DNA of 33,693 bases from IMG/VR virus record IMGVR_UViG_3300033141_001099. One strand, given 5' to 3'. A program made the translations under genes and the position numbers. The first letter of the stretch is position 1; each line of letters starts with the position of its first letter. This stretch comes from a virus. A model generated the notes under the pieces. It was not told the DNA's origin and did no database searches. It worked only from the letters and a program-made list of their open reading frames with translations. Shown here piece by piece: positions 2,487 through 33,693 of the stretch.

Positions 2487-2786
2487 ATGAGTGTAATGCT
2501 ATATACAGGTAATGGTATAACGAAACTTCACGGTGTTATGGTTGATTATATCGTTGTAGATGAAGATGATGTCGAAAGTCATTTAGAAGGCGGATATTAT
2601 AAAACACCTATTGAAGCCGATGAAGCTATAAATGGAGAAGATAATGTTAACATTGAAACAAAAGCTCCGACAAGAAAAGAGATGGAAGACAAAGCAAAAG
2701 AACTTGGGATTAAGTTTCCATCAAATATAAAAGATTCTACTCTTCTTGGTAAAATCAATGACAAGATAAAAGAAAACGAAGGATAA
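2487..2786 (+). CDS. Small head-module protein with a C-terminal HeH/Rho-N-like motif.
   Basis: 99 aa. The C-terminal TRKEMEDKAKELGIKFPSNIKDSTLLGKI resembles the helix-extension-helix motifs common in phage head-region proteins. Confidence 0.45.
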   Translation: MSVMLYTGNGITKLHGVMVDYIVVDEDDVESHLEGGYYKTPIEADEAINGEDNVNIETKAPTRKEMEDKAKELGIKFPSNIKDSTLLGKINDKIKENEG

Positions 2787-2789
2787 ATT

Positions 2790-3269
2790 ATGAGCTGGAC
2801 TAAAAAACAATTTTGTGAAGAAGCATTTGGAGAACTAGGTTACGCTAACTACGACTTCACGTTGTCGGACGACCAGCTTAAAATAGCATTGAGAAAACTT
2901 GATGCAATGATGGCTACTTGGAACTTCAAAGGAATAAGAGTTAGCTATCCTCTACCTGATAATCCAGACGATAGTTCATTAGACACAGCAACAGACGTTC
3001 CAGACTCAGCAAATGAAGCAATTTACGCTAATTTAGCAGTAAGACTTGCTCCGGCAATAGGAAAAACAGTCTCAAGAGAAACAAAAGTTACTGCAAAGCA
3101 AGCATATAATGTATTACTCGGGCTTCACACAGAGCCAAACAATATGCAGTTTAATAGACTTCCAGCAGGTCAAGGAAACAAAAGCTGGAGAAACACGGGC
3201 AGAACTTTCCTTCCACCAGCAGAAGATAAGCTCGATGTTGGTCAAGATGGAACACTGGACTTTGAATAA
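2790..3269 (+). CDS. Head-completion / tail-adaptor protein, P22 gp4-like.
   Basis: 159 aa. ELGYANYDFTLSDDQLKIALRKLDAMMATW, IYANLAVRLAPAI and LPAGQGNK parallel recalled P22 gp4 (KLGVASDATLTD..AVDDLEAMMAEW, VFHNLACRIAPDY, MPTGSGNS). Its position after coat matches. Confidence 0.75.
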   Translation: MSWTKKQFCEEAFGELGYANYDFTLSDDQLKIALRKLDAMMATWNFKGIRVSYPLPDNPDDSSLDTATDVPDSANEAIYANLAVRLAPAIGKTVSRETKVTAKQAYNVLLGLHTEPNNMQFNRLPAGQGNKSWRNTGRTFLPPAEDKLDVGQDGTLDFE

Positions 3270-3616
3270 TGAAAGTTAAAAAACTATTAAAAAAAAGTTA
3301 CTTCTGGGTCGAGGTCGTTAATATGCACTATTACTATTTTACCAACAGAGAAGATTATAGTAAAGCATTAAAACATTTTGGAGCAGAAAGAGATATAAGC
3401 ACAGACGGTGGTCGATGCAGTGTCGTTGAAAGTGACGGGCAATCGCTTATATTAATAGGAAGCTTTAGGGATAGAGATGCTGACATAGTACACGAGTGTG
3501 TTCACGCCTCATTGTTTACTTTTTACCTAATAGGACAGACACTTGACACAGACTGTGAGATACTCCCTTACTTAACAGATACGATTTTTAGTAAGTGTAA
3601 AGAAATAAAAGGCTAA
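3269..3616 (+). CDS. Small HExxH-motif protein, a putative minimal Zn-metallopeptidase fold. It is inserted between the gp4-like and gp10-like genes.
   Basis: 115 aa, TAATG start overlap. Motif DIVHECVHAS (HECVH). An alternative start at 3320 (MHYYYF) has the better SD (GAGG, 8-nt spacer). Confidence 0.45.
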   Translation: MKVKKLLKKSYFWVEVVNMHYYYFTNREDYSKALKHFGAERDISTDGGRCSVVESDGQSLILIGSFRDRDADIVHECVHASLFTFYLIGQTLDTDCEILPYLTDTIFSKCKEIKG

Positions 3617-3618
3617 CA

Positions 3619-5025
3619 ATGCAAATTAATGTCCTAAATGGTATTTATACCGACGATGCACCAGACTTTCGCACAGCATACCCACTAAACTTTATACCCG
3701 TACCAAAAGAACAAGGCATATCAAAAGGTTATTTAAGACCGGCAGATGGAATTGTAGAGTTTGGAGTAACTACCGAGGGAACAGACAGAGGCGGTATTAA
3801 TTGGGATGGTGCTTATTATAGAGTAATGGGCAGTAAACTAATAAAGATAGCCACAAACGGTACTTATATCGTTATCGGTGAAGTTGGAGATGATGGTAAA
3901 AACGTCACAATGGATTATTCTTTTGATAGATTAGCGATAGCAAGCAATGAGGATTTATTTTATTGGGATAACTCAACATTTGTGCAAGTAACAGACCCAG
4001 ACTTAGGAGAAGTTCTTGATGTTGTTTGGGTTGATGGCTATTTTATGACAACAGATGGAGAATTTCTAGTTGTTACAGAGTTGAGTGATCCGACTCAAGT
4101 TAATCCTTTAAAATATGGAAGCGCGGAAGCTTCACCAGATCCCGTTAATGGTTTATTGAAACTAAGAAACGAAATATATGCACTAAATAGATATTCAATT
4201 GAAGTATTTGCTAATATTGGAACAAGTGGATTCCCTTTCCAGAGAATAGCAAGTGCAATTATAGATAGAGGTTGTATAGGAACTCACGCAAGTGCTGTAT
4301 TTTTACAATCAATCGCTTTTCTTGGTGGTGGGCCTAATGAAGCTCCGGCTATATGGTTAGGAAATAACGCAACAACAGTTAAAATATCTACAAGAGAAGT
4401 TGACCAAGTCTTGTTAGAGTTCACAGAAGCGGAATTAAATCAAGTTATTGTCGAAGCTAAAGTTGATAAAGGACACGAACAATTATTGATTCACTTACCA
4501 ACTAAAACGCTTGTTTATTATGGCAATGCCAGTCAAGTTTTAGGAACACCGGTATGGAGCATTTTATCAAGCGGGTCAGATGGAGATTCTATCTATCGTG
4601 GTAAAAATTTAGTATTCGTATATGACAAATGGCACGTTGGAGACACTAATAGTTTCAAATACGGTTATTTAGATGATTCAATTTCTACTCATTACGGTGA
4701 TAAAGTATCGTGGGAATTCACAACAACAATTCTATATAATGAGAGCAGAGGTGCAATAATTCATCAAATGGAATTAGTCGCTTTAACTGGTCGAGTTGCA
4801 AATGGAATAACTCCAACAATTTCAACAAGTTATAGTTTAGATGGTTTAACATTCACTTCACAAGCTTCAATAAAAGCAGGTAATGAAAACGAGACACTAA
4901 AAAGATTAGTTTGGTTATTTCAAGGAAGTATGGCAAATATGAGGCTTCAGCGATTTAGTGGTGATAGTGATACTCACATATCAATAGCAAGACTAGAAGC
5001 AAGAATTGAGCCATTAAATGCCTAA
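3619..5025 (+). CDS. Tail hub / packaged-DNA stabilisation protein, P22 gp10-like.
   Basis: 468 aa (P22 gp10 is about 472 aa). YPLNFIPVPKEQGISKGYLRPADGI and HEQLLIHLPTKTLVYY...SIYRGKN parallel recalled gp10 (YLPVNMLATPKEILNSSGYLRSFPGI; SHELLIIHLPRHVLVYD...DVYRGVD). Confidence 0.75.
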   Translation: MQINVLNGIYTDDAPDFRTAYPLNFIPVPKEQGISKGYLRPADGIVEFGVTTEGTDRGGINWDGAYYRVMGSKLIKIATNGTYIVIGEVGDDGKNVTMDYSFDRLAIASNEDLFYWDNSTFVQVTDPDLGEVLDVVWVDGYFMTTDGEFLVVTELSDPTQVNPLKYGSAEASPDPVNGLLKLRNEIYALNRYSIEVFANIGTSGFPFQRIASAIIDRGCIGTHASAVFLQSIAFLGGGPNEAPAIWLGNNATTVKISTREVDQVLLEFTEAELNQVIVEAKVDKGHEQLLIHLPTKTLVYYGNASQVLGTPVWSILSSGSDGDSIYRGKNLVFVYDKWHVGDTNSFKYGYLDDSISTHYGDKVSWEFTTTILYNESRGAIIHQMELVALTGRVANGITPTISTSYSLDGLTFTSQASIKAGNENETLKRLVWLFQGSMANMRLQRFSGDSDTHISIARLEARIEPLNA

Positions 5026-16514: not shown

Positions 16515-17281
16515 CCCTCTATTACCTCCGCATCTTGTACAGTCTCGCTGTTTACATTTCGTAAGTCAAAGCCGTTTTCTCTTGCATCTAAAAAAGCATC
16601 TATGGCATTATCTGTTGTTTGTTTGTCTTGCTGTTTAAAGCTTTGAAGTGGTTGAGCTTGTGTCTTAGGCTCGACTAAACCTTTCCACCCATTCATAATT
16701 GCTTTGTCTACCATTTCTTGTTGTTGCTGTAGTGTATATTTAGTAAACATATTTAAAAGTTTTGTTATAGGCGAGATAGTTTTATATTTTTTATGGTCTA
16801 CCCATTCATTAAAAGCACCAATGTTAATATTACCATACTCTGCTAATTTTTCAACCGTTAAAACTTTTAGTGATTTGTTTTCTTTAGGAGTTCGTAACGA
16901 AGTCAGTATGATGTCGTTACACTCCTTATCACTATCTATTATCTCTATATCACTATCTTCTATCTTATTATCTGTGTTCATCAATTTATTCAAATCTGAT
17001 AATGAACTGCCAGTTTTAAGAACTTGCATTGATTTAACTTTTAGTAGTATTGCCTTTTGCCATATAAAAGAAATATCCTCATCTATGTCTTCTTTATAGC
17101 TTCTACTGTTTCGTTTTTCATCATATCCAAAAGTAAGGTAGATTTTATATTTAATAATTTTATGATTGTGAGTGCTAGTAATTTGAACACCACCTCCAGT
17201 AAAATCTTTTAATTCAAACTCTGATTTTGTTAAAATTGTATTATTAACTAGGTTTAAAAGTTGTTCATCGGAAAAACTCAT
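16511..17281 (-). CDS. Hypothetical protein, a possible replication initiator/organiser by position and internal repeats.
   Basis: 256 aa. The acidic DSDIEIIDSD segment coincides with DNA repeats at 16887-16958. The C-terminal ...QQQQEMVDKAIMNGWKGL is reminiscent of replication-organiser C-termini. Weak evidence. Confidence 0.3.
   Translation of the reverse strand: MSFSDEQLLNLVNNTILTKSEFELKDFTGGGVQITSTHNHKIIKYKIYLTFGYDEKRNSRSYKEDIDEDISFIWQKAILLKVKSMQVLKTGSSLSDLNKLMNTDNKIEDSDIEIIDSDKECNDIILTSLRTPKENKSLKVLTVEKLAEYGNINIGAFNEWVDHKKYKTISPITKLLNMFTKYTLQQQQEMVDKAIMNGWKGLVEPKTQAQPLQSFKQQDKQTTDNAIDAFLDARENGFDLRNVNSETVQDAEVIEG
16887..16958. repeat. Imperfect inverted repeat (GGAGTtcGTAACG / CGTTACACTCC) followed by two TATCACTATCT repeats 21 bp apart. 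Candidate origin-like cluster inside the 256-aa gene.
   Basis: Read from the sequence: inverted repeat at 16887-16925, direct repeats at 16927-16937 and 16948-16958. Confidence 0.3.
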
Positions 17282-17790
17282 TATTTTTCCTCTTCTTTAA
17301 ACTTTTCAACATTTTCAATCTCACTCTTTAGATGTTTTAATAAATATTCATCTGTGTACAAATTTATGTGAAAATCATAAAACATTGTTAAGTTATTTTT
17401 GCTGTTTATTAAAATAAATTCAGCATTATCGTAACAAGGGTTATATTCAATGTCTATTTGTTCTGAAAAATCAACCAAAACATTTTCGATAGGTTTGAGC
17501 TTTTGAATTAATTGTTTTTCATAGGCAATCAGATTTCCCATCTCTTCAGTATCTACAAAAATTTCAATTTTTTCGCAGGTTTTATATTTCCCTTTTAGGT
17601 GGGTTGCTATTCTGCTAGGCAGATTTGAAGATTGTCCCACATAAAGACATATATCTTCTTTATAAATAGCGTAAAGTCCTTGAACCTTATCTGCCTCGTA
17701 TGTTTCTTTATAGGATTTAAAGCAATCTGCTATTTGAAAATACAACTGCTTTTGTTCTTCTTTTTTTCCAAAAGATATTATGTTTGTCAT
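17281..17790 (-). CDS. GIY-YIG nuclease-domain protein, possibly a free-standing homing-endonuclease-like gene.
   Basis: 169 aa. GLYAIYKEDICLYVGQSSNLPSRIATHLKG ... YEKQLIQKLKPIENV fits GIY-(x)-YIG ... R ... E ... N. Confidence 0.7.
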   Translation of the reverse strand: MTNIISFGKKEEQKQLYFQIADCFKSYKETYEADKVQGLYAIYKEDICLYVGQSSNLPSRIATHLKGKYKTCEKIEIFVDTEEMGNLIAYEKQLIQKLKPIENVLVDFSEQIDIEYNPCYDNAEFILINSKNNLTMFYDFHINLYTDEYLLKHLKSEIENVEKFKEEEK

Positions 17791-18336: not shown

Positions 18337-18729
18337 TTATTTCATCTCCTCAACCAATATAACAAGTTCACTTTCATCTTGATCTAAATGTTTCAAGTAA
18401 AAATTATAAATTCTATCAGCAAAAGCATTTTGAGCCTTAACCGGATAGACCTCTCTAAACTTCTTCGGTGTTCCGTGTGCTGATAACTCTTGTCCGTTTC
18501 TGTGACACTCATCACCACAAAGAGGGATTAATCTCTTGTGATTTTTTCTATCCGTGCTATACTCTTTAACGTGATGCCATTCAATACCGTTTTGTTTACC
18601 ACAAGCGAAACAAACAAAGTCTTGATTTTGCAACCATTCTAAATAATCTTTATCTTCTTTAGTTATCTTTTTTTTGTTTTTTTGGCTTGGCTTTGGTCTT
18701 AATCGGTTATGTTTTATTTTAGTTCGCAT
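18337..18729 (-). CDS. HNH/His-Me-finger nuclease-like protein (DUF968 / NinG-like).
   Basis: 130 aa. CFACGKQNGIEWHHVKEY...LIPLCGDECHRNG gives CxxC...HH...C..CH. It is adjacent to rusA, as in lambdoid nin regions. Confidence 0.55.
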   Translation of the reverse strand: MRTKIKHNRLRPKPSQKNKKKITKEDKDYLEWLQNQDFVCFACGKQNGIEWHHVKEYSTDRKNHKRLIPLCGDECHRNGQELSAHGTPKKFREVYPVKAQNAFADRIYNFYLKHLDQDESELVILVEEMK

Positions 18730-19097
18730 AAGTTCACATCAACTCTTGGATTTTCAGAGTATATTTTTTCAGCAATAACTTTACAAATCTGGCTATCATT
18801 ATGATAAAAAGTTCCCTCTAAACTATCTTTGACAGTTTTTATTAAATTGTCCGTATCTGGTTTTTTAATATGGTACTGCCCTATAAGTTCCCTCTGCTTC
18901 TTTTTTGATTCACTAGCAGGGATTTGCATAAAGAAAGTAACTTTGAGGCAAATAGCACCGTTAAAGTAAGCCTTACATTGTCTTTTTGCTAATAGGAGAA
19001 ACGTTTTTTTATAATTTGTGTATTCTGATGGGTTATATGTCCCTCTTTTGCTAAATCTTGGTCTTGGTGCAGGGAATGGTTTTAAATTAATTATCAT
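18714..19097 (-). CDS. rusA: RusA-family Holliday-junction resolvase.
   Basis: 127 aa. KKPDTDNLIKTVKDSLEGTFYHNDSQI matches the RusA core (kPDlDNl.K...Dal.g..y.DDsqi). Confidence 0.8.
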   Translation of the reverse strand: MIINLKPFPAPRPRFSKRGTYNPSEYTNYKKTFLLLAKRQCKAYFNGAICLKVTFFMQIPASESKKKQRELIGQYHIKKPDTDNLIKTVKDSLEGTFYHNDSQICKVIAEKIYSENPRVDVNLCELK

Positions 19098-19282
19098 TTC
19101 TCTAATACCTCGTAAGTATGTTCATCAATCACTCGCACCTTTCCACTCAATACAATCTGTTCTATAGCTTCTAATTGCTCTTTAGATAGTATCATCTGAT
19201 GACCTTTTATCGTGCCTTTTCTATCATCAATATTCGCAAAAACTGTATATCCGTAAATGTCGCTTGTTATTGCAGTTTTCAT
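19094..19282 (-). CDS. Hypothetical small protein.
   Basis: 62 aa, with 4-nt overlaps on both sides. Confidence 0.55.
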   Translation of the reverse strand: MKTAITSDIYGYTVFANIDDRKGTIKGHQMILSKEQLEAIEQIVLSGKVRVIDEHTYEVLEK

Positions 19283-19479
19283 CTTACATCCTTAACTTCT
19301 GGCATATAATAAGCCAAAGCTCCGCTATCATCAATAACTTTGCTTTCTATGGTATGCCCTGATGCTCTAAGCTCTGAAATTCTTGAACGCAATGAAGTTC
19401 CATATCTTTTCAAATCATCGAACATATTAACCAACTTGCCTGATTCTAAATCCGTAAGGATATTTTGTTTTTTACTCAT
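19279..19479 (-). CDS. Small winged-helix/HTH DNA-binding protein.
   Basis: 66 aa. LESGKLVNMFDDLKRYGTSLRSRISELRASGHTIES resembles the phage HTH family with the ...RLsaRI.eLR..G..I pattern. Confidence 0.5.
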   Translation of the reverse strand: MSKKQNILTDLESGKLVNMFDDLKRYGTSLRSRISELRASGHTIESKVIDDSGALAYYMPEVKDVR

Positions 19480-19781
19480 AATTGCACCCTCTTAAACACC
19501 AAATCTTTTTCAATCAAATCATCTCTAAGCTTTCTAAGAATTGCTAAAACCTCAACATTTCTTTTTTTGACTTGCGATCTGCAATTTTCTGTGTATTCTG
19601 CTTGAGCGATAATTAAGTCGTTTAGGTCAAAAGCCGGAGTTGCACACTTGTATCCTCTGTTGTCGATAACCATTATGTTTTTGATTGTAACAGTTTTGAA
19701 ATTGTTGGCTTTATTCTGAATAGCTAAGATGTTCTTTTCGCTGATTTTGTTATTTTGCATTATTGCTCTGTGAACTCTCAT
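19476..19781 (-). CDS. Hypothetical protein coupled to the PAPS-reductase-like gene.
   Basis: 101 aa, ATGA overlap at 19778-19781. Confidence 0.55.
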   Translation of the reverse strand: MRVHRAIMQNNKISEKNILAIQNKANNFKTVTIKNIMVIDNRGYKCATPAFDLNDLIIAQAEYTENCRSQVKKRNVEVLAILRKLRDDLIEKDLVFKRVQL

Positions 19782-20983
19782 TTTATACCTACCTCCTTTC
19801 TTTTTTTCATATCTTTAAACCTTTGGTATGCATCAGATTTTGGTTGTGATTGCCCTAGTCCTTTACACCAATAATCATTTCTTAGAATTGTTTTTGCCAT
19901 TCTTTTCCAAGATGGTGCCCACTGTGTTACCTCTAAGTCGTGTGGTGCTTCGTCTGGTATCTTCACATAGCCTCTATCTTGCCAAGACACTATAAACTTT
20001 TTAAAGCTTTTCACATAGTGATCAGATGTTTGTTTTGGCAAAGTGGATAATAGCATATTTGTAAAACTCTCCCAAGTATGCCCTTCTGGCTTAGATATTT
20101 TATTGTACCCTGTCATATTCCCCGTCTCTCTAATATATAATGCTCCACTATTGGCACCATTCACTCTATTGATTACTTTACCCCACGTTTCAGGCTCCAA
20201 GATATGATATAACCATAATCCTTGTCGCTGATCATCTCCATAAGGTTGGCATAATCGCTGCTGTGATAACTTTACTCCAGCCATATTCATTTTGTCGTAA
20301 ATTTCATTATGTTTTAAATTTGGGTATTTGCCGTGAAATCTCCATATATCCTCTGTTTTCCAATCATATATCGGGTAAGCATTAAATAGATTTTTTTCTT
20401 GTAAAGAAGTCCAATGTAAATCATCGTGCATTGAACCGTGTTTATACGCTGTAATTGCTCTATATCTGTGAAGACTTTCATCTGCTCTAATGCCGACAAG
20501 AGCAACTGTTTTTTTATCCCCACCATACCACTCTCCAAACAGAATCATAAACTCTTCAAACTCCATTTTATCAACGAAGAAAGGATAGTCTTCTGCAACT
20601 TTTGCCATTGGTGGTTTTTCTCTAACCCAAATATCTTTTTTTTCTTCATCCCAACAAGTCCATCTTGGTTCATAGTTAGTTAAAGCATTTCTTAACAGCA
20701 GAGGAACACAAACCCAGTGCAAATCAATAACATCTTGATACTCATCTATCATATACTCTATATGAGTGATAGTGTCTACATATTGAGCTTCCAAGTCAAT
20801 TATTAAATAGCCTACTTTTCTGTTGCGTTTTCTTGCTTCCTGTAATACTAAGTGAGACATAACAGAACTATCTTTACCTCCACTAAACGATATATAAATG
20901 TTTTCAAAGTCGTCAAATATCTTATTAACTCTTTTTAAAGAAGCCGATAAGACATTCTCTCTTTTATATTTTTTTACTCTCAT
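19778..20983 (-). CDS. PP-loop ATP-pyrophosphatase / PAPS-reductase-fold protein with a DUF3440-like C-terminal region (IbrA-type).
   Basis: 401 aa. N-terminal ISFSGGKDSSV (SGGxDS PP-loop). The C-terminal ...PSWKRMAKTILRNDYWCKGLG is typical of IbrA-like proteins. Confidence 0.85.
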   Translation of the reverse strand: MRVKKYKRENVLSASLKRVNKIFDDFENIYISFSGGKDSSVMSHLVLQEARKRNRKVGYLIIDLEAQYVDTITHIEYMIDEYQDVIDLHWVCVPLLLRNALTNYEPRWTCWDEEKKDIWVREKPPMAKVAEDYPFFVDKMEFEEFMILFGEWYGGDKKTVALVGIRADESLHRYRAITAYKHGSMHDDLHWTSLQEKNLFNAYPIYDWKTEDIWRFHGKYPNLKHNEIYDKMNMAGVKLSQQRLCQPYGDDQRQGLWLYHILEPETWGKVINRVNGANSGALYIRETGNMTGYNKISKPEGHTWESFTNMLLSTLPKQTSDHYVKSFKKFIVSWQDRGYVKIPDEAPHDLEVTQWAPSWKRMAKTILRNDYWCKGLGQSQPKSDAYQRFKDMKKRKEVGIK

Positions 20984-22158
20984 TAGTATAACTCCACTTG
21001 TCTATCAGGTTTTGCTATTTCCATCTTCAACATTTCTTTACCGTTTTCATCTAACCAAAGATTAAGATATTTTAATGCTAGTTCATCAGCTATATTTTGC
21101 TCTTCTTTTGTTAGTTTGAACCATCCGCCTGTGAACTTTGCAGGAATTCCTCTTGCATAACATACTGATGCTTGCCCAAGCCACGCAATACGATTAGATG
21201 CTTTGTTTGTTAAATAATGCTCACAAGAAAATTTCCATTCTTTCGTGACACCCTGAAGTGCTAATTCAAAATCGTGTGGACTTCGCAATAAATCTGCAAA
21301 CTCCTCTTCGCACTCTTCTTTAGACATTCCCTCTACATTTTGAGCAAAGAATCCATTCTGGTGACACTCCCACTTATCATAAGTGTGCATTATTCTGTCG
21401 TATGATGTATTAACTGTTGTTCTGAAGTTCAAAAACTCTCTTTCAAACTCTGTTACTTCATCGGTCAATGCCTCAAAATTACATACTTCACTTTCTCCTA
21501 CATCCCACGATTTGGAGAAATCATCGTCTTTGAATAAATCTTGCAGCCCTGTAATTTGACAAAGTCTTAAAACCTCATCATCATCCATTCCAAGCTCACG
21601 GCAAATTCTAGAATTTGACCAGTTTCTATTTTTCAATTCTACTACCATATCAGACATTGCATCAACTTTATGCTTACCTCTGGCTCTATTGTGTCTCACA
21701 GTAGATGCCATTCTGTCGGTCTTTGATTCTCTGTCTTCACTAAGAGCAACAATCGGCAGATACCCGTGAATCCTTGATTGAATATCTTTGCACTCTTTCC
21801 CAACTCTATGCCTGTGAAAACCGTCAATAACTTCATTTTCGTGTTGTTTGGAGTTAGCCCACGTAACAATCGGTTGAGTGAATCCATCACTTGCGATAGA
21901 AAGTCTTAGAAGTTCCATTTCAGGAGGTGCTACTGTGTTTGGATTGTAATCATTCGCTCCAACAGTATCGTTTTTTACCCATCTGATAAGATCAACAGGC
22001 TCTGATTTAAAAGGACTAATGTTATGAATTTCTTCTCTTATTGCATTTATAGCTTCTATTTTTTCGTCAAGTTCTAAGAAGCCTAACCTTTTGCAAATTA
22101 CTTTTATATCAATAATTGCCTGCTTTACCGCACCACTTTCTTTTTTTGTATTTTCCAT
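20983..22158 (-). CDS. ParB/sulfiredoxin-like nuclease-domain protein (IbrB-type) fused to an unassigned C-terminal domain of about 175 aa.
   Basis: 391 aa. ANDYNPNTVAPPEMELLRLSIASDGFTQPIV...VIDGFHRHRVGK is the ParB-N DGxHR motif. The stop overlaps the start of the PP-loop gene (TAATG). Confidence 0.8.
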   Translation of the reverse strand: MENTKKESGAVKQAIIDIKVICKRLGFLELDEKIEAINAIREEIHNISPFKSEPVDLIRWVKNDTVGANDYNPNTVAPPEMELLRLSIASDGFTQPIVTWANSKQHENEVIDGFHRHRVGKECKDIQSRIHGYLPIVALSEDRESKTDRMASTVRHNRARGKHKVDAMSDMVVELKNRNWSNSRICRELGMDDDEVLRLCQITGLQDLFKDDDFSKSWDVGESEVCNFEALTDEVTEFEREFLNFRTTVNTSYDRIMHTYDKWECHQNGFFAQNVEGMSKEECEEEFADLLRSPHDFELALQGVTKEWKFSCEHYLTNKASNRIAWLGQASVCYARGIPAKFTGGWFKLTKEEQNIADELALKYLNLWLDENGKEMLKMEIAKPDRQVELY

Positions 22159-22228
22159 AATTTCGTCTTCTGGATTATTAAATTTAAGGGAGAGTAAGAA
22201 AGTTCCAACCTTTCGCTCAAGAAGTCCT

Positions 22229-22275
22229 TAAAAAAGAGTAGGAGCGAGGCGGTTGGAAGACCTATCACTACTCTT
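22229..22275 (-). terminator. Promoter-proximal intrinsic terminator / attenuator in the leader of the ParB-PAPS operon.
   Basis: The - strand reads AAGAGUAG-(26 nt)-CUACUCUU followed by UUUU. It begins about 13 nt after the predicted transcription start site (TSS). Confidence 0.55.
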
Positions 22276-22294
22276 GTTTAAAAACTCAGTAACA

Positions 22295-22303
22295 ATTATA
22301 TCA
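22295..22303 (-). promoter_or_regulatory. Extended -10 promoter, TGaTATAAT.
   Basis: Reverse complement reads gagtttaTGATATAATtgttactg. No good -35, which is acceptable for extended -10 promoters. Confidence 0.5.
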
Positions 22304-22315
22304 TAAACTCTTTGT

Positions 22316-22428
22316 GAAGTGGTAGAATATTTATATAGTCGGCTTAATATAAAAAGCTACAATGTACTCATACGTTACATTTTAATGCGATGCCTTTCCA
22401 CACTACTCGCTTGTTCTTCTACCACTCC
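22316..22428 (-). ncRNA. Candidate structured element, about 113 nt. A 12-bp closing helix encloses three short hairpins.
   Basis: gaagtggtagaa (22316-22327) pairs with ttctaccactcc (22417-22428). The single irregular pair is G-U on the - strand and A-C on the +. Inner stems: 22330-36/22347-53, 22361-66/22376-81, 22387-90/22407-10. Confidence 0.3.
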
Positions 22429-22437
22429 ATCAAAAGT

Positions 22438-23022: not shown

Positions 23023-23400
23023 CTACTGTGGTAAAATATTACCATTAACATCTGTCAACTGACCTTGAGCGTTTTTATACTCTTGAACTGGCTGTTGATA
23101 ACTCTGGGTTTGGTTGTAGCCCTGAGGGTGCTGTTGTTGCTGTTGATTTTGTTGAGGTGCTTGTTGCTGATAATTATTATTACCGCCTTGCTGATTGTTT
23201 TGGTTAGCATCATCAAAAACCCCGACCATCACCATATCTTTGCCTTGCTCTCTTGGAAATGCTGCAAAGTTGATTGTTGGATCAATTAATGCAAACTCTT
23301 TGCCATTTTTCTCTAAAATAACTCCGACATTTACCCATCTTGTTTTTTCTTGCCCGTCTTTTGTGTAGCTTCCGTTTGCTACTGCTAATTTTTTACTCAT
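23023..23400 (-). CDS. Protein with a small N-terminal globular part and a Q/N-rich low-complexity tail, possibly SSB-like.
   Basis: 125 aa. The tail NQNNQQGGNNNYQQQAPQQNQQQQQHPQGYNQTQSYQQ resembles an SSB disordered linker, but there is no acidic C-terminal tip. It lies near erf. Confidence 0.35.
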   Translation of the reverse strand: MSKKLAVANGSYTKDGQEKTRWVNVGVILEKNGKEFALIDPTINFAAFPREQGKDMVMVGVFDDANQNNQQGGNNNYQQQAPQQNQQQQQHPQGYNQTQSYQQPVQEYKNAQGQLTDVNGNILPQ

Positions 23401-26495: not shown

Positions 26496-27002
26496 GTGAA
26501 ATATTACAGAACAAAAAACGGTGTAGTTTCAAAGATTTATGGAAAACAAAGAGAGCGGTCAAGAGAGAAGAATTATCCGATGCCCTCTTACACTAACCAC
26601 GATTTAAGAGAATGGTTATTCGGTCAACAATTGTTTCACAGACTATATAGTGAGTGGAAAGAAAGTGGATACTTGAAAGAACTAGCTCCATCACTCGATA
26701 GGCGTAATGATTACAAGCCTTACACTTTTGATAATATTCGATTAACGACTTGGAAAGTAAATAAAGCCAAAGGCGAGAGCGATAGGAAAAATGGAATAAA
26801 TAATAAAGTTAACAAAGCAGTTTTACAGTTTACAAGAAAAGACAAGTTTATTGCAGAGTTTCACTCTTCAATGGAAGCACAAAGACAAACAGGAATTTAT
26901 AGCTCTAATATCGGTCATACTTGCAGGAATGAAAGAAAAACCGCTGGTGGATTTATATGGAGATTTAAAAAAGAAAAAATTGACATAGGTCAAATACATT
27001 AG
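26496..27002 (+). CDS. Homing-endonuclease-like protein: a His-Me-finger/HNH-like core plus a C-terminal NUMOD/IENR-type HTH.
   Basis: 168 aa, GTG start, SD AAGGAG. Motifs PSLDRRNDYKPYTFDNIRLTTWKVNKAKG and GIYSSNIGHTCRNERKTAGGFIWRF. Confidence 0.65.
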   Translation: MKYYRTKNGVVSKIYGKQRERSREKNYPMPSYTNHDLREWLFGQQLFHRLYSEWKESGYLKELAPSLDRRNDYKPYTFDNIRLTTWKVNKAKGESDRKNGINNKVNKAVLQFTRKDKFIAEFHSSMEAQRQTGIYSSNIGHTCRNERKTAGGFIWRFKKEKIDIGQIH

Positions 27003-32955: not shown

Positions 32956-33693
32956 ATGCAAGAGAATGAAACGGTAGTAGAACCAACAGAGACAAAAGAA
33001 CCTGAAACACCAGAGGTGGAACAACCAGAAGTGAACACAGAGGCAGAGGGAACAGAAACCGAAGCTAATGAAGAAACAACTGAAAGTGAAACTGAAGAAG
33101 ATGAAGAGATATTTGTAACAGTTGGCGATGAGGAAGCACCACCTCAAGAAGAAGAAACAAACGAGGCTCCTGAATGGGTTAAAGACGTTAGAAAGCAAAA
33201 CAGAGAACTACATAAAAAAGTTAAAGAGTTAGAAAGACAGAATGCAGTTGTTGAGGAAACAAAGCCGGCAACACTTTCAAAAAGACCAGTTCTTGAAGAT
33301 TTTGATTATGTAGAAGAAGATTTAAATGTCGCACTTGATAAGTGGTATGATGAAAAAGCAGAAGTAGACAAACAACAAAATGTTCTTAAAGAAGAAGAAC
33401 AAAAACAAGCAGATGCCTGGAAAAAAACATATGATGATTATAGTGAAGCTGTAAAGAACACTAAGATTAGAAACTATGCCCAAGCAGAAGATGTTGTTAA
33501 AGATACTTTATCTGTTGAACAACAAGCCATTATATTAAAGGGTGCAAAAAAGAACTCAGTTTTACTTGTCGCTGCCATTGGTAGCAATCCAGAAAGAGCG
33601 AAAGAACTTGCAGCAATCACTGATCCAATAGATTTTGCTTTTGCAGTTGCAGAAATGGGAACTAAATTGAAAACACATAAAAAGAAAGCTCCA
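32956..33693 (+). CDS. Scaffolding-like protein, N-terminal part. The ORF runs off the window end and continues at 113-253, for about 292 aa in total.
   Basis: SD AAGGA 7 nt upstream. It has a very acidic E/T-rich N-terminus, is open to the last base, and is in frame through the overlap. Not in the track because there is no stop within the window. Confidence 0.7.
   Translation, partial: MQENETVVEPTETKEPETPEVEQPEVNTEAEGTETEANEETTESETEEDEEIFVTVGDEEAPPQEEETNEAPEWVKDVRKQNRELHKKVKELERQNAVVEETKPATLSKRPVLEDFDYVEEDLNVALDKWYDEKAEVDKQQNVLKEEEQKQADAWKKTYDDYSEAVKNTKIRNYAQAEDVVKDTLSVEQQAIILKGAKKNSVLLVAAIGSNPERAKELAAITDPIDFAFAVAEMGTKLKTHKKKAP
33582..33693. repeat. Right copy of the 112-bp terminal direct repeat.
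   Basis: Identical to 1-112 by direct comparison. Confidence 0.95.

Follow-up and report, generated by a model that had tools for sequence, protein, structure and literature searches.

Introduction

The closest described relatives of the gene pair reported here are IbrA/IbrB and YbdN/YbdM of Escherichia coli. They share with it an enzyme containing the two Pfam domains PAPS_reduct and DUF3440, a ParB/Srx-like partner with a DGxHR-type motif, and adjacent, co-transcribed genes. The only known phenotype of the name-giving pair, which also appears in annotation strings, is the activation of prophage eib genes by E. coli IbrAB. Here we describe an IbrA/IbrB-type pair from the virus record IMGVR_UViG_3300033141_001099 (IMG/VR), in which the ParB-like protein carries an added C-terminal domain, denoted X. 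The whole 33,693-nucleotide stretch that was analysed is called the window.

Several other systems combine similar parts. DndB belongs to the ParB superfamily and is paired with DndC, a PAPS-reductase-fold PP-loop ATP pyrophosphatase acting on DNA (PMC10853773). Phage ParB-domain methyltransferase fusions (phrog_498) and DpdB of the Dpd 7-deazaguanine system likewise associate a ParB-like domain with a DNA-modifying enzyme (PMC12839542). In the Vibrio crassostreae podovirus p0018, a PAPS-reductase domain fused to a Dam methylase has been linked to an anti-Dnd phenotype, which came with two genes together, the fusion and a neighbouring gene (bioRxiv 10.1101/2021.05.05.442762); a 2026 survey refers to the work where it lists phage PAPS reductases under Aca regulation (PMC13551039). 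No other experimental counter-defence phenotype is known for a domain of this kind.

The phage IbrA/IbrB-type pair is itself already catalogued: PHROG families and a subsystem name in SEED exist for it, and it is annotated in genomes of mycobacteriophages and of Flavobacterium and Streptococcus phages. Such pairs rank with the most common phage two-gene modules that still await an explanation, and their public labels vary from 'PAPS reductase AMG' (auxiliary metabolic gene) to 'ParB partition protein' and 'co-activator of prophage gene expression'.

Results and Discussion

The gene pair and its relation to described systems

The first and last 112 bases of the window are identical (1-112 and 33582-33693), and the contig is therefore a circularly assembled complete genome of ~33.6 kb. 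The phage is a P22-like podovirus, for which a portal, large terminase, major head protein, Hc3, gp7, tail accessory factor and DNA-transfer proteins were found. No match among isolated phages was obtained by megablast with 17-23 kb of the window. The pair is located in a leftward early module consisting of Erf, a Gam-like protein, NinB, a 125-amino acid (aa) protein, the cassette, small open reading frames (ORFs), RusA, an HNH-like protein, a GIY-YIG protein and an O-like protein. Its features are as follows (HTH, helix-turn-helix; pLDDT, predicted local distance difference test; HMM, hidden Markov model).

20986..22158, minus strand: coding sequence of the ParB-like::X fusion, 391 aa, stop codon at 20983-20985 (ORF)
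19781..20983, minus strand: coding sequence of the IbrA-type enzyme, 401 aa, stop codon at 19778-19780 (ORF, PF01507 and PF11922)
20981..20985, minus strand: TAATG stop/start overlap coupling both genes (sequence)
21529..22008, minus strand: ParB/Srx N-domain (residues ~51-160) and HTH (~161-210) (phrog_2159, Foldseek; NDYNPN and DGFHR motifs)
21400..21528, minus strand: disordered acidic linker, residues 211-253 (pLDDT, charge about -9)
21034..21399, minus strand: X domain, residues ~254-375 (all-alpha, pLDDT 94.6, X HMM)
20867..20884, minus strand: PP-loop SGGKDS, residues 34-39 of IbrA (S34, G36, K37, D38 and S39 invariant)
19967..20278, minus strand: DUF3440 core, residues 236-339 of IbrA (best Pfam stretch, 2.9e-37)
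19805..20014, minus strand: basic C-terminal tail of IbrA, residues ~324-393 (conservation, net charge about +9)

On the minus strand the junction between the genes reads tatacTAATGagagta, with the stop codon TAA at 20985-20983 and the ATG at 20983-20981 overlapping by 1 nt. The 401-aa protein contains ISFSGGKDSSV and ...NDYWCKGLG, and matches PF01507 PAPS_reduct (8.3e-13, 49.2 bits, cut-off 22.5), PF11922 DUF3440 (2.9e-37, 128.6 bits, cut-off 25) and phrog_2302 (2e-85). By its domain content the pair is assigned to the IbrB/IbrA (E. coli YbdM/YbdN) architecture. A preliminary description, made from the letters of the window alone, had named a pair of this type joined by a TAATG overlap and had proposed a profile check of both Pfam families; the ParB/Srx-like protein, the two above-threshold domains of its partner and the 1-nt translational coupling all agree with it.

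Conservation in IbrA was derived from two homologue sets, one of 95 sequences and one of 18 diverse sequences. The SGGKDS loop, the GIRxDES motif (here GIRADES), YPIYDW..D.W and several Trp, Arg and Asn residues are invariant, and the tail carries the motif W..RGY..IPDE.P..L..APSWK...ND.WCKGLG. Cysteines C92, C245 and C373 are conserved to 88-96% (C373 to 96%) but dispersed. A PDB search with the IbrA profile returned only remote CysD, CysH and FAD-synthase chains (best 6e-6) and no solved structure of the IbrA type.

The ParB-like half of the 391-aa protein contains ANDYNPNTVAPPEMELL and VIDGFHRHRVGK, and its invariant positions are N69-N74, D112-R116 (D112-G-F-H-R116) and R155-H163. Residues 41-228 match phrog_2159 'ParB-like' (2.6e-66), and the ParB-like half also matches the ParB-methyltransferase fusions of phrog_498. 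An AlphaFold2 model of the whole protein, calculated from a 59-sequence alignment, has a mean pLDDT of 80 and a predicted template modelling score (pTM) of 0.43, and consists of two independent domains. In a Foldseek search ~150 residues of this model align with the N-domain plus HTH of Noc, ParB and KorB (E 2.5e-5 to 1e-3). The phrog_2159 match and the modelled fold place the protein firmly in the ParB/Srx group. The ParB/DGxHR core named in the preliminary description is thus supported by phrog_2159 and Foldseek, but not by Pfam ParB_N, which remains below threshold (16.7 bits, cut-off 26.3).

Compared to the E. coli pairs, the window cassette is phage-borne and mobile, and its ParB-like protein has the added X domain. 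The gene order is ParB-like then IbrA in the window, and IbrA then ParB-like in phages AQ113, CHPC877 and CV-1-33, while the E. coli operon is written ybdNM. The likeness to DndB/DndC lies in the combination of a ParB-superfamily protein with a PAPS-reductase-fold PP-loop enzyme. The DndC model TIGR03183 gives 27.2 bits with IbrA (cut-off 290.4) over residues 159-227 only, and the PADLOC DndC models give 29-31 bits, the DndC models covering residues ~159-234 only. DUF3440, which is present in IbrA, is not known to be part of DndC. Neither DndA/SspA cysteine desulfurase nor DndD/E, SspB/C or DndFGH partners were found among the scanned ORFs of the complete 33.6-kb genome.

Other named enzymes likewise match IbrA only in generic PP-loop or RxDES/PIYDW segments and far below their family cut-offs. 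The CysH models score 17.7 (TIGR00434, cut-off 165.1) and 20.4 (NF002537, cut-off 154), the CysD match is likewise partial, and BrxP of BREX type 4 (PADLOC) reaches 21.4 bits over residues 13-48 only, with no BREX genes in the window. The ParB-like protein differs from ParABS ParB in its sub-threshold ParB_N score, in having X in place of a C-terminal dimerisation domain, and in the lack of a ParA among the scanned ORFs. In comparison with the Dpd system, IbrA neighbours the ParB-like gene in place of DpdA, and no tRNA-guanine transglycosylase (TGT) match was obtained among the scanned ORFs. More generally, the partner of the window ParB-like protein is a PP-loop protein, and not a methyltransferase or TGT as for the phrog_498 fusions and DpdB. 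With p0018 the window shares a PAPS-reductase-fold domain in the accessory region of a podovirus; the p0018 protein differs in its Dam fusion and in having no DUF3440 and no described ParB-like partner, and p0018 was not recovered by tblastn with the window IbrA at E <= 1e-5.

The X domain and its family

The ParB-like half is followed by a linker with pLDDT values below 50 at residues 211-231 and 246-251 in the AlphaFold model. This is the point where other phages have the gene split in two. More than 8000 proteins scored as full-length homologues of the 391-aa protein; the 120 that scored best all have lengths of 364-410 aa, with 90-100% query coverage and 55-84% identity. Such an abundance shows that the ParB::X fusion is a stable family and not an accident.

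When X was modelled alone, using an alignment with 64 diverse standalone homologues, a confident prediction was obtained that is all-alpha with pLDDT 94.6 and pTM 0.88. Its motifs are H258-x4-W263-E264-C, S-C-E313-H-x-L-T-N, N322-R-I-A-W-L-G-Q329-A and Q..A357...A361. Homologues were collected by an exhaustive HMMER search with residues 225-391, and the representatives were clustered at 50% identity. The resulting family comprises 593 cluster representatives, of which most are standalone and 110-170 aa long; rarer forms are proteins of 200-230 aa with X at the N-terminus and a single 637-aa protein with X at the C-terminus. We define the family as ~120-aa all-alpha domains with the motifs H-x4-WE, (S)CE(H/Q)xLTN, NRxAWxGQA and Q..AN, coded in the IbrA/ParB-like module. 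The window X scores 159 bits with the family HMM, and the positions conserved family-wide are H258, W263, E264, G269, W308, E313, L316, N322, A325, G328, Q329, A357 and A361.

No family for the window X was found in Pfam, PHROG or NCBIfam, and nothing consistent was found there for 64 members. Searches of PDB sequences (phmmer and profile) gave only chance-level matches (Sin3 PAH 0.012, FbpA 0.13), the Foldseek search of PDB folds gave no significant match (best E 2.2), and BFVD contained a single match, an unnamed 116-aa viral protein. Helical bundles of the Erv/AhpD type recurred among the Foldseek matches without reaching significance and were not used. The preliminary description had left residues 215-391 as a fused, unassigned domain for which structure prediction and a fold search were advised. 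A separate domain without a family was indeed found, with a confident all-alpha model and no significant fold relative in the PDB, but its extent is ~254-375, after the disordered linker at 211-253.

The idea that X is a duplicated piece of IbrA was rejected (hhalign probability 0.3%). Long standalone X proteins of 200-230 aa (P0132, P0137, P0138, P0145, P0150 and others; for instance L008 4001-4690) carry at their C-terminal end ~70 aa that duplicate the tail of IbrA. The copy corresponds to IbrA residues ~324-393 and reads W..RGY..IPDE.P..L..APSWK..A.AIL.ND..L.SLGF, without C373. In the window proteins X and the linker are acidic (-7 and -9), as opposed to the basic IbrA tail (+9). The tail copy and the opposite charges, both read from sequence, hint at a relationship between X and IbrA.

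Genomic linkage of X and the IbrA/ParB-like module

In all eight metagenomic look-ups of standalone X genes, X was located directly upstream of IbrA. A ParB gene was visible in five of the eight, two of the contigs (L094, L095) being too short to show it and a third, L007, having X fused to a ParB. The gene orders observed were ParB - X - IbrA (L006, L009), ParB - HNH - X - IbrA (L002-L005), X - IbrA - ParB - MazG (L096/L097) and X - IbrA - cupin - ParB (L008). Among 80 related IMG/VR loci, gathered with a narrow X alignment, IbrA followed the fused ParB::X gene in 79, and the remaining locus ends at a contig edge. IbrA was also found beside X on 20 of 22 contigs from metagenome-assembled genomes (MAGs), and all 20 of these loci also hold ParB; of the other two contigs one is truncated and the other is L119. 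The latter, a 22.6-kb MAG contig, codes for a 286-aa X protein (2777-3634) that has no Pfam match and neither IbrA nor ParB closer than 7 kb; no other ORF with X was found apart from IbrA/ParB.

A survey of 50,697 isolate phage records detected X in about five, namely Microcystis phage Mwe-JY13, Pseudomonas phage Amjad_SA, Pseudoalteromonas phage XCL1123 and Mycobacterium phages Gaia and Nebkiss. All of these carriers have X annotated as hypothetical or under the ParB label. Of the cultured phages, Mwe-JY13 is the closest relative, at 57-61% identity. The order is ParB - X - IbrA in Mwe-JY13, where X is a separate coding sequence, and in Amjad_SA, and it is IbrA - cupin - ParB - (gp105) - X in Gaia and XCL1123. 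A rule that X is always directly upstream of IbrA was rejected, as X comes after ParB in the latter two. The residence of X in the IbrA/ParB-like module, found in nearly every inspected locus with L119 as the exception, is hence near-obligate.

The module, on the other hand, is frequently found without X. Isolate records with IbrA number 224 and those with the ParB-like protein 226; the genera are distributed identically in both, and X-less modules are common among them. A relaxed HMM search (--max) of the small ORFs upstream of IbrA did not detect X in AQ113, CHPC877, FCV-1 or CV-1-33, nor did a scan of the whole CV-1-33 genome with the X HMM; at the sensitivity of the HMM, X is truly missing from these modules. 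X-bearing modules cover near and distant IbrA lineages alike. Judged from this distribution, X is an old but dispensable accessory. It is a widespread autonomous component of the module, abundant in metagenomes and nearly absent from cultured phages.

The module is also a target for selfish insertions. In L007 (188-2101) the ParB domain of a protein fused to X contains an insert of ~260 aa, the HMM alignment being interrupted between residues 93 and 351 (HMM positions 55 to 51). In L002 a NUMOD4/HNH_3 homing-endonuclease gene (4528-5001) lies between ParB and X.

Limits of the cassette and accessory partners

Five further ORFs follow the pair in the window.

19476-19781, minus strand: 101-aa ORF (4-nt overlap)
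19279-19479, minus strand: 66-aa HTH ORF (4-nt overlap; HTH_39 0.003, weak)
19094-19282, minus strand: 62-aa ORF (4-nt overlap)
18714-19097, minus strand: RusA ORF (4-nt overlap; match 3.5e-32, confirmed)
18337-18729, minus strand: HNH-like ORF (16-nt overlap; DUF968/RecA_dep_nuc about 0.006, weak)

Their coordinates confirm the chain of five genes with overlaps of 4-16 nt (4, 4, 4, 4 and 16 nt) that had been noticed at the outset. The 101-aa neighbour has no Pfam or PHROG match. The 101-aa, 66-aa (HTH) and 62-aa neighbours recur in none of the 80 related loci and were rejected as parts of the module; RusA and HNH recur in two loci each. The closest ParB::X relatives, with 82% and 78% identity (L124 and L125), are found in different phage backbones, with DnaB and a ResIII/Helicase_C helicase upstream and Gp157 and RecT downstream, and with no counterpart of the 101-aa, HTH and 62-aa neighbours. 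The unit is consequently a mobile cassette of two genes and not of seven. It occupies replication/recombination regions, with Erf, Gam, NinB and RusA in the window and RecT, YqaJ and DnaB elsewhere.

Some partners recur around the module in other phages. Directly upstream of the X-less pair, SNF2-related helicases of ~400 aa are coded in Lactobacillus phage AQ113 (L010 1545-2714), Streptococcus thermophilus phage CHPC877 (L013 1515-2750) and Flavobacterium phage FCV-1 (L012 2824-4035). Their mutual identity is 31-37%, and this helicase is a possible alternative third component. In Amjad_SA a DEAD/ResIII helicase follows IbrA. Cupins of the ectoine-synthase family (PF06339, 1e-32 to 9e-42) lie between IbrA and ParB in L008 (5987-6376), L121 (2736-3635) and L123 (3069-3461), and in Gaia gp104 a cupin is fused to ParB. 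MazG-family genes are situated directly downstream of the module in independent contexts (L006 6608-6973, L096 2543-2851, L097 2634-2942). A C5 DNA methyltransferase gene lies beside the ResIII helicase gene in L125 (462-1793), the phage with the 78%-identical cassette, so that the cassette and methyltransferases are not mutually exclusive.

As far as the libraries and literature examined show, the X family, its residence in the module, the abundance of the fused clade in uncultured phages and this set of accessory partners are undescribed.

A possible role in DNA modification or counter-defence

We tentatively favour the view that the cassette, built on a DNA-directed ATP pyrophosphatase, serves in modification or counter-defence, with X as an adaptor for IbrA, and give it slightly less than an even chance. 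The ParB/Srx N-domain and HTH would bind DNA, probably in a nucleotide-dependent manner as in ParB, Noc and KorB, and DNA would presumably be the substrate. X, held on its flexible acidic linker, may dock to IbrA or activate it, possibly at the basic C-terminal tail. IbrA, with its intact SGGKDS PP-loop, would then spend ATP to adenylate a nucleic-acid group that subsequently undergoes substitution, for instance with sulfur or an amine. The outcome would be a covalent DNA mark limited by sequence or context, which could aid the phage against host defences such as modification-sensing Dnd/Ssp-type systems. The ParB plus HTH fold, the recurrent helicase, cupin and MazG partners, and the single anti-Dnd precedent fit this proposal, as do the place of the module in replication/recombination regions, the match of the ParB-like part to phrog_498 and the precedent of DndB/DndC.

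A number of observations weigh against it. We know of no chemistry or phenotype for any phage IbrA/IbrB-type pair. The preliminary description had said that no chemistry was demonstrated for phage-borne versions, which holds for these pairs but needs the qualifier that a PAPS-domain/Dam fusion has been linked to an anti-Dnd phenotype. The similarity of IbrA to DndC, SspD and BrxP is confined to generic motifs (TIGR03183 27 vs 290 bits; BrxP 36 residues), and the scanned window ORFs included no partner of the cysteine desulfurase, DndD/E or TGT kind. Chromosomal paralogues occur without any link to defence, as E. coli ybdNM, which is repressed by YbdO, and as the Listeria core genes lmo1309/1310, and the phenotype of the name-giving E. 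coli IbrAB is prophage eib activation. The IbrA of Chlorobiaceae phage CV-1-33, although 54% identical to that of the window, belongs to an X-less module, which argues that X is dispensable for the core activity. Within X, E264 is the sole residue invariant across the family and the cysteines are replaceable, so that X need not be catalytic.

The short palindromes of the genome point in the same direction. Relative to a maximal-order Markov expectation for the whole window, GGCC is depleted to 2 sites where 27 are expected (observed/expected ratio, O/E, 0.07), CATG to 12 where 98 are expected (O/E 0.12) and GATC to 33 where 113 are expected (O/E 0.29). Several 6-mer palindromes are absent, with a median O/E of 0.54. 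This suggests that the phage relies on restriction-site avoidance, and the avoidance of GGCC, CATG and GATC implies a continuing exposure to type II restriction and DNA without blanket protection. The absence of a recognisable methyltransferase, from which the preliminary description argued, holds for every scanned window ORF of at least 140 aa. Its proposal that the pair is the best candidate for DNA modification or anti-restriction is retained here in conditional form only, given the generic character of the DndC/BrxP similarity, the lack of Dnd or Dpd partners among the scanned ORFs, and the avoided sites.

A more far-reaching version, in which X is a new catalytic or substrate-delivering subunit and ParB-like protein, X and IbrA (optionally with the EctC-like cupin, helicase and MazG) form an undescribed pathway, widespread in uncultured phages, that writes a covalent modification into phage DNA, appears to us rather improbable. 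A purely regulatory pair, with IbrA as a nucleotide-dependent switch and no DNA modification made, is unlikely as well; it is implied by the name-giving E. coli phenotype. It would agree with the HTH in the ParB-like half, with the regulated operon of E. coli ybdNM beside a LysR regulator, and with the frequent position of the module at an early/late boundary adjoining HNH and terminase genes; DndB, the ParB-superfamily partner of DndC, is moreover reported to be an ATP-modulated transcriptional regulator (PMC10853773). A strictly conserved 400-aa PP-loop enzyme with invariant catalytic-type motifs would, however, be a costly switch, the cassette moves among unrelated backbones without conserved target genes or leader, and the recurrent helicase, cupin and MazG partners look enzymatic. 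A little less likely than the regulatory pair is a conflict effector directed at targets other than the phage's own DNA, in which the ParB/Srx domain would have NTPase or nuclease activity and IbrA would adenylylate host molecules (the nucleotide pool, tRNA or defence proteins) or act on competing phages. Members of ParB/Srx-superfamily conflict systems have been proposed as NTPases or nucleases (PMC10853773), MazG nucleotide pyrophosphohydrolases adjoin the module in L006 and L096/L097, a cupin with the small-molecule enzyme fold of ectoine synthase is inserted in some modules, and the strong restriction-site avoidance shows that the phage's own DNA lacks broad protection. Against such an effector, the HTH and Noc/KorB-like fold indicate DNA binding, helicase partners recur, and neither toxin-like behaviour nor an immunity gene was seen.

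The two readings implied by current annotation fare worse. That the 401-aa protein is a CysH-like PAPS reductase boosting host sulfur assimilation is very unlikely. PHROG places phrog_2302 in the category 'moron, auxiliary metabolic gene', and a DUF3440-bearing clade is among those in viral 'CysH' surveys (bioRxiv 10.1101/2021.01.05.425418), but the CysH models stay far under their cut-offs (17.7 vs 165; 20.4 vs 154), the protein shares an intact PP-loop with ATP-using relatives, the pairing with a ParB-like DNA-binding protein is obligatory, and the genes are placed in replication/recombination modules. A plasmid-like ParB partition system for an extrachromosomal prophage has hardly any probability at all: the ParB-like fold and labels of the type 'ParB-like partition protein' stand against a sub-threshold Pfam ParB_N, a set of scanned ORFs with no ParA-like member, an X domain replacing the C-terminal dimerisation domain of partition ParBs, and a partner that is always a PP-loop enzyme. 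A toxin-antitoxin reading, whose sole basis is guilt by association in TASmania, was rejected.

The X domain and the recurrent helicase, ectoine-synthase-like cupin and MazG partners give a sharper and testable definition of the system, and Gaia, Amjad_SA, XCL1123, Mwe-JY13 and CHPC877 are cultivable models for its chemistry. Should the product be a DNA modification, the cassette would represent a new branch in the biochemistry of phage counter-defence; otherwise an 'AMG' and 'ParB' annotation that is very common would still need correction.

Leader and other genes of the early region

Upstream of the cassette lies one further feature.

22159..22437, minus strand: untranslated leader of ~280 nt (inverted repeats; local to this phage)

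On the minus strand at 22203-22286 it contains two overlapping inverted repeats. The first has 19-nt arms that are 84% complementary and is followed by a minus-strand T-run, and the second is an 8-nt pair with one arm inside the loop of the first. By eye, a TGATATAAT-like element can be seen upstream at about 22293-22301; the attenuator-like look has neither statistical support nor conservation. Scans for sigma-70 promoters and terminators were at chance level, with nothing on the minus strand in the leader, and the leader folds only modestly better than shuffled sequences (z = -2.3). The closest relatives, L124 and L125, have no long leader, and this one is absent from both. The promoter and attenuator that had been ascribed to the operon are accordingly left unsupported by the scan, the fold and the comparison.

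Between NinB and the cassette, in the place expected for a single-stranded DNA-binding protein, a 125-aa protein is coded at 23023-23400 (minus strand). Its N-terminus matches phrog_37570, of unknown function, and its long C-terminal tail is Q/N-rich. Two candidate homing or structure-specific nucleases are also coded in the early region, a GIY-YIG domain protein at 17281-17790 (minus strand, 1.6e-7) and an endonuclease VII/HNH-like protein at 26496-27002 (plus strand, phrog_1035 at 6.8e-13).

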